Assembly: GCA_045105275.1 (NCBI GenBank)
Contig: JBGCDJ010000006.1
Coordinates: 1,645-65,644 of the forward strand
Length of the DNA: 64,000 bases
Direction: 5' to 3'
Origin: Candidatus Midichloriaceae bacterium
Lineage (GTDB): Bacteria > Pseudomonadota > Alphaproteobacteria > Rickettsiales > Midichloriaceae
Part shown: in pieces, positions 18,827-23,683 of the stretch
Numbering within the stretch: the first letter of the stretch is position 1
Layout of the letters: every line of letters starts with the position of its first letter
Position numbers and translations under genes: made by a program
The notes under the pieces: generated by a model
Told to the model about the DNA's origin: nothing
What the model saw: the letters and a program-made list of their open reading frames with translations, nothing else
The model's database searches: none

Positions 18827-19294
18827 GCAGTAAACAAAAAAATAAAAGAAGGATACGGAATTAAAGGGGTAGAATTTCCTCAAAGAAGAGGAGAGTTAAT
18901 ATTAGATTTAATTTATTTAAGTAATGCCAAATGGCAGGAGAAAGTATTTACTTCATTAAAAAAATTCAAGTTTAAGCCAGTTTTAAATGGTGAATATGGC
19001 ATTTATTATACTTTGGAAGGAGCGACTGAGTTAATTTTAGAAGATTTAGGTTTAGATGATTATATTAAAAATAATCAATATACATATAAAGCAATTGGTT
19101 ACTCGTTAAAATCGAAGAGAGGAGCAGAATATTTGTTTAAGGTTGCTACTTTAATTGATAAGTTATCCGAAAGCGTTAACCCTAATTATGAAATGATTAA
19201 AAACAAACATTATTTAGCATCGCCTTATTTGGATGAATTAAGGAAATTAGTATTAAAATTTTTTATTCCTCCTCCTCATTTTCTAAATTATTAG
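18809..19294 (+). CDS. Putative immunity protein (resembles the SCO4402-like family); 3' end runs into the antisense mrcA end
   Basis: VEFPQRRGELILDLIYLSNAKWQ...LGLDDY...IGYSLKS...SPYLDELRK; family resemblance is by eye only. Confidence 0.65.
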   Translation: METMEQAVNKKIKEGYGIKGVEFPQRRGELILDLIYLSNAKWQEKVFTSLKKFKFKPVLNGEYGIYYTLEGATELILEDLGLDDYIKNNQYTYKAIGYSLKSKRGAEYLFKVATLIDKLSESVNPNYEMIKNKHYLASPYLDELRKLVLKFFIPPPHFLNY

Positions 19295-21746
19295 ATATTT
19301 CTTGTTGCTCATTTTCTAATATATCAAATATTGAATCTGAATCTAATGATTGTGGTGACGATATAATATTCTCTATCACTTTTGCATTTAATTGATCATT
19401 TACATAAGTAGATTCAGAACGATTGCTTTTAAAATTCTCAAGGATATATTTTTTATCTTGAAGAAAATCTTTTTCTTCAGTTATATCTCCTGTTTCTTGA
19501 TCAACATAACTTTTACTAATCGAATCTGGTACTTCAAATTCTCTATCAGGAATAAAGTTTAAATTTTTTAAAAAATCAACAAAAATTGGCAATGGAATAT
19601 TAGATCCTGCTGCATGTTTCCCCATATCTTTAGGTATATCGTATCCTACAAATACACCAATTGTTACATCTGGTGTCATACCTATAAACCATGTGTCCAA
19701 ACTATTATTTGTTGTTCCAGTTTTCCCTGCAATAGTTCTTTTTAGTACCTTAGCTCTTCGAGCTGAGCCTCTTTGCACTACACCTTCTAATAGTGAAAGA
19801 ATTTGGTAATTAGTTCCATCATCAGTTACTTTTTTGCCTAAAAATCCAATTTCAGGATCTAATCTTTGCTCATTTACTTCTTCCTGAAAGTGAGAGGGAG
19901 AATTATTTTTGTGATATAGATCTTTGGGTGAATATAATAATTCTCCATGTCGATTATATACGCTATCTATTAATTTCGGCTGCTTCATCACACCATTATT
20001 TGCAATGCTTGCATAAGCATTAGTCATTTTAAGTAAGGTAGTTTCGTATGCACCTAGTGCCATAGAATAAGTGGGTTTAATACTTGAATTATAAATTAGA
20101 TATCTTTTAGCTACGTCAGCTAATTTTTCTAGGCCTATGCCCAATACCAGCCTTAATGTAGATAGATTTCTGGATTTTTCAAATGCAGTTCTTACTGTTA
20201 TCAATCCATAATATTTATCTGAATAATTTTTTGGTTTCCAGATCGGCATGCCATTCCCTAAATCTATCTCAAGCGGCTCATCTAAAACTAATGTATTAGG
20301 TGGTATATTTTGCTCAAAAGCTGCGAGATATAAAAATGGCTTAAAAGCTGAGCCCGGTTGCCTTTGAGCCTGAGTTACTCTATTGAATTTACTTTGGCTA
20401 TAGTCGTACCCACCAACTAATGCTAAAATTTTACCAGATATGTTCTCAATAACTACCATACCTCCGTTAATCTCTGGTATTTGTTCTAATGTGTATTGTC
20501 CATTAGTGGCTTCATCAAGTAATATAACATCTCCAACTGCAAATTTTTGTTTTAGCTGTATTGCTAAGGATATATTTTTATTTAAAATCCATTCAAGGGA
20601 TAATTTTGATAACTTTATTTCCTTTTCATTTTGTAGTGTTACATTAAGGCCATCTTTATTTATTTTTGTAATAACTCCCAATAAAAAATAATCATGATAA
20701 TTATTTTTAGAAACTTTTTTTAAATTTGCGGTAATGTCATTTTTTATATCAATTTTTGCCAATGCTCCTCTCCACCCTCTTTTTTTATCATAATTTTTCA
20801 ACCCTTTTCTTAATGAATTTTGGGCAGCAGTTTGCAAGTCTAAATTGATATTAGTGTTAACGGTCAAGCCTTTTGAGTAAACGTTCTTTTCGTTAAATAA
20901 ATCAATTAATTCTGATTTAACGGCACCTGTATAATAATTTTCATACTTATTATTTCTGATTGGAGAGTTACTAAGTTGTATTGGAGAATTTATAGCATCT
21001 GCTCTCTCTTTGAAAGTTATAAAACCCTCTTCTTCCATTCTTTGTATCGCCCAATTTCTGCGCTCGAAAGCCCGCTCATAATTTTTATAGGGATTTAAAG
21101 TAGAGGGAGCTTTTGGTAATGAAGCTAATAGCGCAGCTTCTTCAATATTAATTGTATCTAGGCTTTTGCCAAAATAATTATAAGCAGCAACATAAATTCC
21201 ATAAGAATGGTGCCCAAGATATATTTGGTTTAAATATATCTCCAATATTTTTTCTTTAGAAAAAGATTTACTTACTCTATAGGCTAAAATTGCTTCTTTT
21301 AATTTTCTAACAAAACTCCGTTCATTAGTTAAGAAAAATCCCTTAACTACTTGTTGAGTTATAGTGGAGCCACCAACTAATCTTTTATTTCTTCCTATAT
21401 TTAAAATATTTTGCAAGGATGCGCGTAAAATACTTGTTAAGTCAACACCTTGATGTTCAAAAAAATTTTTATCCTCGGCAGCTATAAATGCATTTGTAAT
21501 AATATTAGGTATCTTATCATATCTAACATATACTCTTTTTTCTGATGCATATTCATCTAAAATTTCACCCTTTGGATCGTATAATCTAGTAATTCCAGAA
21601 GGCATGTAATTTGATAACTCTTCATAATCAGGAATATCTTGAAAAAAACTTGCAAAGAATAATAGACTTAAAAAACCTAGAGCAATAATAAAGGCAAAAA
21701 TAATAAAGAATATAAAAAACAGCTTATTGGTAAATTTACTCATCAA
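19263..21746 (-). CDS. mrcA: Penicillin-binding protein 1A
   Basis: Transglycosylase EDKNFFEH, GGSTITQQVVK, RKLKE; transpeptidase RQPGSAFKP (SxxK), SRN, KTGT. Confidence 0.97.
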   Translation of the reverse strand: MMSKFTNKLFFIFFIIFAFIIALGFLSLLFFASFFQDIPDYEELSNYMPSGITRLYDPKGEILDEYASEKRVYVRYDKIPNIITNAFIAAEDKNFFEHQGVDLTSILRASLQNILNIGRNKRLVGGSTITQQVVKGFFLTNERSFVRKLKEAILAYRVSKSFSKEKILEIYLNQIYLGHHSYGIYVAAYNYFGKSLDTINIEEAALLASLPKAPSTLNPYKNYERAFERRNWAIQRMEEEGFITFKERADAINSPIQLSNSPIRNNKYENYYTGAVKSELIDLFNEKNVYSKGLTVNTNINLDLQTAAQNSLRKGLKNYDKKRGWRGALAKIDIKNDITANLKKVSKNNYHDYFLLGVITKINKDGLNVTLQNEKEIKLSKLSLEWILNKNISLAIQLKQKFAVGDVILLDEATNGQYTLEQIPEINGGMVVIENISGKILALVGGYDYSQSKFNRVTQAQRQPGSAFKPFLYLAAFEQNIPPNTLVLDEPLEIDLGNGMPIWKPKNYSDKYYGLITVRTAFEKSRNLSTLRLVLGIGLEKLADVAKRYLIYNSSIKPTYSMALGAYETTLLKMTNAYASIANNGVMKQPKLIDSVYNRHGELLYSPKDLYHKNNSPSHFQEEVNEQRLDPEIGFLGKKVTDDGTNYQILSLLEGVVQRGSARRAKVLKRTIAGKTGTTNNSLDTWFIGMTPDVTIGVFVGYDIPKDMGKHAAGSNIPLPIFVDFLKNLNFIPDREFEVPDSISKSYVDQETGDITEEKDFLQDKKYILENFKSNRSESTYVNDQLNAKVIENIISSPQSLDSDSIFDILENEQQEISNNLENEEEE

Positions 21747-21848
21747 AAAAATATAGTATTGTAGTGTTTGTTTTTAACATTTCTTTTTTAATTTTAAAGG
21801 AAAAATTTAATATGGGATGAGTTTTGATTAAAATTTACTGCTTACACT

Positions 21849-22004
21849 TTTAGCGCATCCTAATTAGTAATGGGGAAGGTTTGCTTGATGATAAGGATGC
21901 GCTAAATACGTAGTCACCCGTTCAGCTACTTTGTATAACGGTACCATATCCAAATCACATATACAGCCTTTAGTTTCTTTATTCCCTACCATAAGTAGAC
22001 AAAG
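21849..22004 (-). ncRNA. Candidate structured ncRNA, copy 1 (three hairpins)
   Basis: 13-bp stem TTTAGCGCATCCT/AGGATGCGCTAAA (21849-21861/21894-21906) plus two bulged hairpins; covariation with copy 2. Confidence 0.6.
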
Positions 22005-22068
22005 GCATGTGTCTTTATAAGAAATAAGTTATGCTGGTTTTTAATAATAACGTATTATATTTTGCATT

Positions 22069-22220
22069 TTCAGCGCATCCTAATGAGTAGTGGGAAGGTT
22101 TGCTTGATGATAAGGATGCGCTAAATATGCAGTCACTCATTCAGCTACTTTGAAATACCGTACCACATACAAACCACATATACAACCCCTAGTTTTACTT
22201 TCTACCATAAGCAGGTAAAG
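22069..22220 (-). ncRNA. Candidate structured ncRNA, copy 2
   Basis: Diverged tandem copy offset by 220 bp; stem 22069-22081/22113-22125; substitutions keep pairing on the minus strand. Confidence 0.6.
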
Positions 22221-22262
22221 TGAGCTAACTTTGCTTGCTATATTTTTTTTATTAAATATTTA

Positions 22263-22291
22263 TTTACTTCATTTTTGCAAAACACTATAAT
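22263..22291 (+). promoter_or_regulatory. Sigma70-type promoter for ffh
   Basis: TTTACT-N17-TATAAT, 27 nt before the ffh ATG. Confidence 0.65.
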
Positions 22292-22318: not shown

Positions 22319-23683
22319 ATGTTTTCTTCATTAAGTGAGAATTTTATAAAAACCTTTGATAAAATTAAGCGCAAAGGAACGATATCGCAAGATGATTTGG
22401 AGGTAGCTTTACGTGAAATAAGAATATCAATGCTTGAGGCTGATGTTGCGCTAGGTGTTACAAAAGAATTTATTGCTAATATTAAAAATAAAGCTATTGG
22501 AGAAGAAGTTGTGAATAGCGTAACTCCTGGGCAAATGATAGTTAAAATTGTCCATGATGAGTTAAAAAATATTTTAGGAGCAGAGGAACAAGATATAAAT
22601 TTAAAAATATCGCCTCCTGCAATAATAATGTTAGTTGGGTTACAAGGTGTTGGAAAAACAACAACTGCTGCTAAATTAGCGGCATATTTAAGAAAAAAAT
22701 ATAAGAAAAAAGTGTTACTTGCATCGTTAGATACATATAGACCAGCTGCCCAAGAGCAACTTGCAACTCTTGGTAAGCAAATTTCAGTTAATACCTTGCC
22801 TATTGTTTATGAGCAGCTTCCTCTTGATATAGCCAAAAGAGCAATAGAGGAAGGAAAAGCAGAATCATTTGATTTAATAATTTTGGATACTGCAGGTAGG
22901 TTGCATTCTGATGAAAAATTAATTGATGAAATTATTTCTATAAAACGCATAACTAATCCCATTGAAACTTTGTTAGTAGCGGACTCTATGGCAGGGCAAG
23001 ACGCAGTGAATAGCGCTAAAAAATTTCATGACTCGATAAAATTAACGGGGGTTATATTAACTAGAATTGATGGTGATTCAAGAGGCGGAGCTGCACTAAG
23101 TATAAAATATATTACAGGATGCCCCATTAAGTTTATCGGGCACGGTGAAAAAATATCTGATTTAGAAAAATTCTATCCTGAGAGGGTAGCATCAAGGATT
23201 CTTGATATGGGAGATGTTGTTACTTTGGTTGAGAAAGCTATAGATACAGTAGGTGAAGAGGATGTTGAGCAACTAACCAGGAAAATGCAAAAGGGTAATT
23301 TTGACATGGAAGATTTGAGAAAGCAGCTCAATAATTTGAAAAAAATGGGAGGCATATCTTCGATAATGGGGATGTTGCCAGGTTTTAAAGTGATAAAGCA
23401 GGCTTTGGGCTCAGATAAATTTGATAAAAGCGTTATAACGAAACAAGAAGCAATAATAGATTCTATGACGAAAAAAGAAAAAAGATATCCAAAAATAATG
23501 AATGCATCAAGGAAAACTAGAGTAGCCAAGGGGGCAGGAGTTACTGTTCAAGATATTAATAAATTGTTAAAGCAATTTTTGGAAATGCAAAAAATGATGA
23601 AAAAAGTGGGCAAATTTGACGAAAAGAATTTAAGAAATTTTGGAAACATGTTAGATAATAAGTATAAAAATAAAATTTTATGA
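22319..23683 (+). CDS. ffh: Signal recognition particle protein Ffh
   Basis: GLQGVGKTTT, DTAGRLH, TRIDGDSRGGAALS, Met-rich M domain. Confidence 0.99.
   Translation: MFSSLSENFIKTFDKIKRKGTISQDDLEVALREIRISMLEADVALGVTKEFIANIKNKAIGEEVVNSVTPGQMIVKIVHDELKNILGAEEQDINLKISPPAIIMLVGLQGVGKTTTAAKLAAYLRKKYKKKVLLASLDTYRPAAQEQLATLGKQISVNTLPIVYEQLPLDIAKRAIEEGKAESFDLIILDTAGRLHSDEKLIDEIISIKRITNPIETLLVADSMAGQDAVNSAKKFHDSIKLTGVILTRIDGDSRGGAALSIKYITGCPIKFIGHGEKISDLEKFYPERVASRILDMGDVVTLVEKAIDTVGEEDVEQLTRKMQKGNFDMEDLRKQLNNLKKMGGISSIMGMLPGFKVIKQALGSDKFDKSVITKQEAIIDSMTKKEKRYPKIMNASRKTRVAKGAGVTVQDINKLLKQFLEMQKMMKKVGKFDEKNLRNFGNMLDNKYKNKIL

Follow-up and report, generated by a model that had tools for sequence, protein, structure and literature searches.

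The window, that is, the whole stretch of 64,000 nucleotides that was analyzed (contig JBGCDJ010000006.1 of a Candidatus Midichloriaceae bacterium, a Bandiella-like intracellular organism), contains an intergenic site at which mrcA and ffh are divergent and between which two copies of an element are located. The Pfam domains confirmed the identity of both flanking genes, which had been proposed in the original prediction.

Two copies of the element between mrcA and ffh

A genome search revealed that the element is duplicated as direct repeats with an offset of 219-220 bp and approximately 83% identity over 156 nt; the two direct copies and their coordinates had thus been correctly recognized at the outset. 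A repeat finder broke the copies into three collinear blocks of 80-87% identity. The repeated unit is approximately 155 nt long, and the conserved RNA element within it comprises approximately 140-150 nt. Within each copy lies a near-perfect inverted repeat whose arms of 16-22 nt flank approximately 26 nt. The pair in the window represents the sole copies in this 1.14-Mb, 20-contig genome. The features of the locus, for which the limits of copy 2 were set by the conserved columns of alignments A3 and A4, are as follows.

19263-21746, minus strand: mrcA, encoding a class A penicillin-binding protein (Pfam Transgly, PCB_OB, and Transpeptidase)
21750-21777, minus strand: mrcA promoter-like site TTAAAA-16-TATATT, between copy 1 and the mrcA start codon, in a region conserved in the Bandiella relatives
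21842-21996, minus strand: copy 1, mrcA-proximal and diverged (covariance model R1, 155.2 bits at 21836-21996)
21843-21912, minus strand: hairpin H3 of copy 1 (21843-21861 with 21894-21912), with a 32-nt loop at 21862-21893 (inverted repeat I2, outward pair table, and alignment)
21944-21964, minus strand: hairpin H2 of copy 1 (A4 columns as for copy 2)
21963-21978, minus strand: conserved 5' block of copy 1, the counterpart of the copy 2 block
21988-21993, minus strand: -10-like box of copy 1, the counterpart of the copy 2 box
22062-22212, minus strand: copy 2, ffh-proximal (R1, 173.5 bits, E 9e-26, at 22056-22215)
22063-22131, minus strand: hairpin H3 of copy 2 (22063-22081 with 22113-22131), 17 bp with one U·U mismatch and a 31-nt loop (inverted repeat I1)
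22082-22112, minus strand: loop of copy 2, UAUCAUCAAGCAAACCUUCCCACUACUCAUU, 31 nt with a single G, containing CCUUCCC
22163-22183, minus strand: hairpin H2 of copy 2, 5-7 bp with a UUU-containing loop (A4 columns 33-39 with 47-53)
22182-22197, minus strand: conserved 5' block UAAAACUAnnGGUUG(C/U) of copy 2, (near-)invariant columns 21-34 in A3 and A4
22204-22209, minus strand: -10-like box TATGGT of copy 2 (TATAGT or TAAAGT in relatives), recognized by visual inspection of alignments A4 and A5, at the 5' limit of the conserved region
22263-22291, plus strand: ffh promoter-like site TTTACT-17-TATAAT (10/12 consensus matches)
22319-23683, plus strand: ffh, encoding an SRP54-type GTPase (Pfam SRP54_N, SRP54, and SRP_SPB)

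The two copies differed in their conserved parts. The 5' block of copy 1 was altered (GGCUGU versus GGUUGC), and its loop carried one inserted base and two substitutions in an otherwise invariant sequence. Because of these changes in the loop and the 5' block, copy 2, the loop of which is identical to the family consensus, was taken as the canonical gene here; we infer that it holds this status and that copy 1 may be decaying or diverging.

Distribution and gene neighborhoods of the homologs

Searches with covariance model R1 identified the element in 5 of 28 genera of the Midichloriaceae (Rickettsiales), at one or two copies per genome. All six of the other genomes from the same genus carried it, as did four further genera. 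When 38 other families of the order were searched, each represented by one genome, no match was returned. A pattern based on the conserved part, applied to a collection of species genomes, matched only Midichloriaceae records, namely those of Ca. Bandiella numerosa, a Bandiella sp. chromosome, Ca. Aquarickettsia rohweri, and several MAGs. Scanning metagenomes contributed five further copies from the same genus, one partial copy, and three chance matches. The carriers comprise five genera, and most of the sequences come from one genus.

All of the homologs were intergenic, and their neighbors varied. The arrangements, given in the sense of the RNA, were as follows.

The window, G002, and one metagenome contig: tandem pairs spaced by 219, 268, and 313 bp; ffh upstream and divergent, mrcA downstream in the same direction
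Aquarickettsia: one copy; ffh upstream and divergent, mrcA downstream in the same direction
G001, G003, and G006, mrcA-side copy: a 711-aa gene upstream in the same direction, mrcA downstream in the same direction
G001, G003, and G006, ffh-side copy: the ffh promoter upstream, a convergent gene downstream
G007: an ADP/ATP translocase gene upstream, mrcA downstream
G032: a cytochrome c gene upstream, manC downstream and convergent, with the manC stop codon in the loop on the opposite strand
G019: an IS1-like element upstream, prfB downstream and convergent
G015: an RNase D-like gene upstream, a fliK-like gene downstream

Because the sequence of the element is kept while its neighbors change, the element is best read as a gene of its own and not as a leader.

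Several of these loci had particular features. The manC-like ORF of G032 (mannose-1-phosphate guanylyltransferase/isomerase; L033:1534-2961) enters the hairpin on the opposite strand and ends there in ...YLAHPNE and its stop codon, and an IS1-like two-ORF transposase (L021:1734-2485) adjoins the single copy of G019. In G001, G003, and G006, the copies are apart and in the same orientation, with the G003 pair separated by 250 kb. These separated copies are L017 and L030 on the G003 chromosome (at 124.5 kb and 373.8 kb), L034 and L042 in G006, and L036 and L037 in G001. A rearrangement breakpoint lies exactly between the mrcA-side and ffh-side copies of the three genomes, and recombination there may have used the repeat as its substrate. 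In a tree of the copies, grouping was partly by species group and not by position; the duplication may reflect either one old event with subsequent gene conversion or two events.

Hairpin H3 covaries on the minus strand

H3 comprises a 10-bp core rich in G+C, three pairs that are A-U or G·U, the U·U mismatch, and a lower stem of 4-5 bp. It corresponds to the third of three hairpins (SL1, SL2, and SL3) in the original prediction, which was right about a real helix with a 31-32-nt loop and understated its length, giving 13 bp where the stem reaches 17 bp with its lower part. RNAalifold predicted H3 from the homolog alignment, and the covariation was kept as more sequences were aligned, which was the check that had been suggested. 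On the minus strand, 98.0% of the cells in H3 were paired among 15 sequences, with six pairs changed on both sides; among 21 homologs, the paired cells amounted to 98.6%, with seven compensatory pairs. In none of 500 shuffles did the percentage of paired cells in H3 alone come up to the observed one, and pairing fell to 26-51% when the partners were slid against each other. The lower stem covaried without conservation of its sequence (UAC/GUA, UGCAU/AUGCA, GCAC/GUGC, and UAUAC/GUAUA), and the core of H3 in G015 exhibited two double substitutions, from G-C to A-U and from C-G to U-A.

Without strand-specific selection, transitions from Watson-Crick pairs should yield both mirror forms equally often. 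The results revealed 26 G·U versus 0 A·C cells on the minus strand in the set of 15 sequences and 37 versus 0 in the set of 21, and the G·U wobbles occupied at least six stem positions in several lineages. The strand-specific wobble pattern noted originally therefore became stronger when homologs were included. Since G·U pairs occur only on the minus strand and are accompanied by compensatory changes, selection acts on a minus-strand RNA and not on the DNA. The 21 homologs from five genera thus bear out the selection on minus-strand RNA structure that had been proposed from the two copies, and we consider it very probable that the element specifies a functional minus-strand RNA.

An RNA from the plus strand was considered and rejected. 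An apical AGUGGG/UUUGCU mini-helix and a k-turn-like UGAUGA/AUGA motif can be drawn for it, but the wobbles in the stem are all of the minus-strand kind.

The 5' domain

The conserved region opens with CYUCUUAURGUAG, which holds the -10-like sequence TATAGT, TATGGT, or TAAAGT. This opening is followed by the invariant block UAAAACUAnnGGUUGC and then by hairpin H2; after H2 come the AAAGUAGCUGAA block and GUGA, the latter immediately 5' of H3. In H2, 70.7% of the cells were paired, and the core pairs (34-38 with 48-52) were present in 71-95% of the sequences. Four pairs of this hairpin had changed on both sides, and G019 was fully compensated, with C-G in place of the U-A found elsewhere. These findings lend moderate support to H2 as a small covarying hairpin.

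A candidate helix P1, in which GGUUGC pairs with GUAGCU (the AAAGUAGCU block), was paired in 91.7% of its cells and rich in G·U; no covariation was found for it in the homolog alignment. A pairing of the loop with the 5' block (GGUUGC with GCAAACC) was rejected, again with no covariation. Covariation outside H3 is thin because the carriers are limited to five genera and the sequences belong mostly to one of them.

The first two hairpins of the original prediction fared differently from the third. All three quoted sequences are present in the window as written. The three-hairpin fold itself was not supported, as the minimum-energy folds of single minus-strand sequences were no better than those of shuffled sequences (z -0.45 and -1.82); folds of single copies consisted of a local 3' hairpin and a 5' half that was unpaired or weakly structured. 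SL2 paired no better than shuffled columns, with 153 of 500 shuffles reaching the observed level, and it competes with the covarying lower stem of H3 for the same bases. The inner stem of SL1 was fully paired solely in the two window copies, had mismatches at one or two of its four pairs in 14 relatives of the same genus, and has its 5' half in the nonconserved flank, outside the conserved region. Neither SL1 nor SL2 was retained.

Transcription signals and coding potential

The -10-like box at the 5' edge of conservation in copy 2 is a putative promoter element, as judged by inference only. A consensus promoter scan did not pick up the TATGGT box, and no conserved -35 sequence was found in the relatives. 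The position of the ffh promoter-like site, downstream of copy 2, excludes the element from the ffh leader. This site is present also in relatives whose ffh-side copy does not adjoin mrcA.

Each copy additionally contains a sigma-70-like sequence GTGACT-18-TATCAT on the minus strand (22107-22136 and 21888-21917), in which TATCAT is situated at the 5' edge of the loop. Its use as an internal promoter was rejected; the -35 part is not conserved, and a transcript starting in the loop would drop the 5' arm that is under selection as RNA. H3 was likewise rejected as an intrinsic terminator, considering its 31-nt loop, the A-rich sequence after the stem, and the lack of a U-tract; a terminator scan did not report the hairpin. 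On the plus strand, a terminator-like hairpin with 12 pairs (4 of them G-C) followed by ATATTTTTTTT is located at 22210-22239, shortly before the ffh promoter. It has no gene to terminate, since none is encoded on the plus strand upstream of it, and it overlaps SL1 of copy 2. This hairpin, which with its T-run follows copy 2, was only weakly present in relatives and was not conserved among them.

On the minus strand, a 42-aa ORF (MVGNKETKGC...) runs across copy 1 (21864-21992), and the corresponding frame of copy 2 ends after 23 codons. A coding function was rejected for this frame of copy 1, for a 19-aa frame with a GUG start, and for a 13-aa plus-strand frame, which were either not conserved or conserved alike at all codon positions.

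The 31-nt loop is nearly invariant

The loop was identical in 16 of the 21 homologs, and two others (G019 and copy 1 of G002) differed from it at one base; differences at several positions were confined to copy 1 of the window, G007, and G015. The loop was kept across genera in which MrcA is approximately 67% identical and the other intergenic DNA cannot be aligned. Because it contains only one G, it is expected to stay single-stranded. Base-pairing seeds of small RNAs usually comprise 7-12 nt. That a 31-nt loop should stay invariant from genus to genus is unusual for such a seed and points to a specific conserved partner.

We searched this genome for trans duplexes of the loop. The best reached -26.8 kcal/mol, which was not better than the results for 12 shuffled loops (-26.6 to -31.6). 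Two exact 11-nt matches of the GGGAAGG type, complementary to the loop, were found, and both were located within coding sequence, at codons for W-E-G-F.

Comparison with known RNA families

The original prediction had recognized no known RNA family, and the Rfam scans agreed with this. Over the element, Rfam 15 at E ≤ 10 returned only chance-level matches to snoRNA and miRNA families (E 0.23-7, far below gathering), and the scan of the whole window at the gathering threshold returned two tRNAs only. SRP RNA, an idea suggested by the neighboring ffh, was rejected because the real SRP RNA is located 70 kb away on the same contig (C6:93862-93958). The element was also rejected as a tmRNA, a permuted tmRNA being present on contig C12; ARAGORN placed this two-piece gene, with the tag VNTKFAPANENQAFALAA, at C12:58802-59133.

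We further compared the element with 6S RNA (RF00013), which resembles it in length and in being a conserved noncoding RNA of single or low copy number. RF00013 did not match over the element even at E ≤ 10, nor elsewhere in the genome, and three Rickettsiales 6S RNAs used as nhmmer queries gave no match in this genome. Among the genera of the family, RF00013 was undetectable in all five carriers of the element and was detected in 10 others, and 13 genera had neither RNA; the element was thus found only in genera without detectable 6S RNA, a complementary distribution that is not significant (hypergeometric p ~0.09) and includes no phylogenetic correction. The 6S RNA gene precedes ygfA in two other Rickettsiales families, and ygfA is its usual neighbor in G037 and G039. 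In the present genome, a homolog of ygfA (5-formyltetrahydrofolate cyclo-ligase; C2:13266-15196) abuts the divergent radA and leaves no room for a 6S RNA gene. The 6S RNAs of G008, G037, and G039 fold as rods. The element, unlike 6S RNA, has no rod fold with a central bubble and does not lie beside ygfA; its identity as a 6S RNA was rejected on the basis of this fold and the missing RF00013 match.

A stand-alone small RNA as the preferred reading

We propose that the two elements are paralogous genes for a structured small RNA of approximately 140-150 nt that would be transcribed from the minus strand. Each gene would form its own transcription unit rather than part of a UTR, with the -10-like TATAGT or TATGGT at the 5' edge of conservation, and the stable 17-bp hairpin may constitute the 3' end of the RNA or protect it from exonucleases. 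The RNA would act in trans through the displayed loop. The first choice for its mechanism would be a pairing, independent of Hfq, of the C/A-rich loop and its anti-Shine-Dalgarno-like CCUUCCC with purine-rich ribosome-binding regions; tblastn identified no Hfq homolog in the genome. Among the three options originally offered, paralogous regulatory small RNAs are accordingly the one we favor. On the comparative evidence, a stand-alone small RNA appears quite likely when set against a leader, and a trans-acting minus-strand family of such genes, whatever its partner, is on balance the likely explanation of the element. Pairing of the loop with ribosome-binding sites is put forward only tentatively as the mechanism. 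The family is best read as undescribed and restricted to one subclade of the Midichloriaceae, comprising Bandiella/Aquarickettsia and four other genera.

A role in protein binding or in tertiary structure fits the near-total invariance of the loop at least as well as pairing does. It is a serious rival because invariance over 31 bases exceeds what a seed needs. According to this explanation, the element is a decoy or scaffold RNA whose stem-held open loop binds a conserved protein, the most interesting candidate being RNA polymerase in genomes where 6S RNA was not found. The genome has no excess of sites complementary to the loop, RF00013 is missing from the five carrier genera and present in 10 others, ygfA abuts radA, and the TATCAT of GTGACT-18-TATCAT coincides with the 5' edge of the loop in each copy, all of which are in line with such a role. 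However, the complementary distribution with 6S RNA did not reach significance, the 6S-type rod and central bubble of the G008, G037, and G039 RNAs are missing, and the GTGACT box is not conserved across relatives. We therefore regard a protein-binding RNA as rather unlikely. A bolder form of the idea, in which the element would represent a new class of protein-sequestering RNA whose loop mimics melted promoter DNA or another nucleic-acid ligand and replaces 6S RNA in a subclade lacking a recognizable 6S gene, seems very improbable.

The element might instead be a cis-acting 5' leader that controls the translation or stability of mrcA. The element immediately precedes mrcA, in the same direction, in genus g1 and in G007, and the UACUCAU of the loop can pair with the start region of mrcA (AUGAGUA) in Bandiella and G007. 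This pairing does not extend to Aquarickettsia, in which the mrcA start AUGAAAAAA offers no site for UACUCAU. Moreover, the sequence is also kept at sites away from mrcA, in the ffh-side copies of G001, G003, and G006 as well as in the single copies of G032, G019, and G015, and in the window a promoter-like site intervenes between the element and mrcA. A leader is accordingly an improbable explanation.

A function at the DNA level, such as a cruciform or a palindromic site for protein binding or recombination, could account for the near-perfect inverted repeat that underlies the hairpin and for the rearrangement breakpoint between the copies of G001, G003, and G006. DNA or symmetric recognition would not, however, produce mismatches of such strand asymmetry, with 37 minus-strand G·U pairs and no mirror image, and the lower stem covaries without keeping its sequence; such a function is highly improbable. 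The remaining readings, which take in the two other options of the original prediction and comprise a non-autonomous mobile element and a guide RNA for a recombinase or nuclease (of the IS110 bridge RNA or IS200/IS605 omega-RNA type), are suggested by the tandem duplication and by the IS1-like transposase next to the G019 copy but are scarcely credible, given that the genome has two copies with none dispersed, that the position is syntenic across the genus, that no recombinase gene stands beside any of the 21 copies, and that the genome contains no IS110 DEDD domain (PF01548). A dispersed repeat or MITE of the REP/RPE type was also rejected, with two copies at one locus here and one or two per genome in relatives.

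Relation to known systems

The AbcR1/AbcR2 (alpha-r15 family) and CcsR ("cuckoo") RNAs are alphaproteobacterial small RNAs with C-rich anti-Shine-Dalgarno loops and tandem paralogs. The stand-alone small RNA proposed here would be similar to them as an intergenic RNA of approximately 100-150 nt with head-to-tail paralogs and a stable hairpin that presents a pyrimidine- or C-rich single-stranded motif (CCUUCCC). In contrast to these RNAs, the element has no Rfam match of any kind, and what is invariant in it is the whole 31-nt loop rather than a short motif; it also lacks a U-tract terminator, its genome lacks Hfq, and no target rose above shuffles. The IS110 bridge RNA is a structured RNA of approximately 150-190 nt with large loops that is encoded within the IS110 element beside the recombinase. 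The element resembles it in being structured, of about that length, and equipped with a large loop, but has no recombinase adjacent to it or elsewhere in the genome and is not mobile.

Trans-acting small RNAs of the Rp_sR and Rc_sR series have been described in Rickettsia (PMC4683814, PMC4896933, and PMC5105140). The element, as read here, would share with them the features of an Hfq-independent, lineage-specific intergenic small RNA in obligate intracellular Rickettsiales. They differ in that the Rickettsia RNAs belong to the Rickettsiaceae, whereas R1 produced no match in the sampled order beyond the five Midichloriaceae genera, a comparison made by a model search at the genome level. Our literature search found no paper that describes an RNA regulator (sRNA) in the Midichloriaceae.

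The Midichloriaceae are endosymbionts and parasites of ciliates, corals, and ticks. As judged from its sequence and conservation, the element is a bacterial small RNA of a new and narrowly distributed family; it does not represent a new kind of system, and nothing links it to a mechanism beyond the repertoire of small RNAs and ribonucleoproteins. These findings reveal a strongly constrained, lineage-specific RNA for which the strand and the main helix can be read from evolution alone. The alignment and the covariance model could serve as the starting point of a new RNA family and lead to better annotation of these MAGs, and naming the partner of the loop would show how genes are regulated in reduced intracellular genomes without Hfq.
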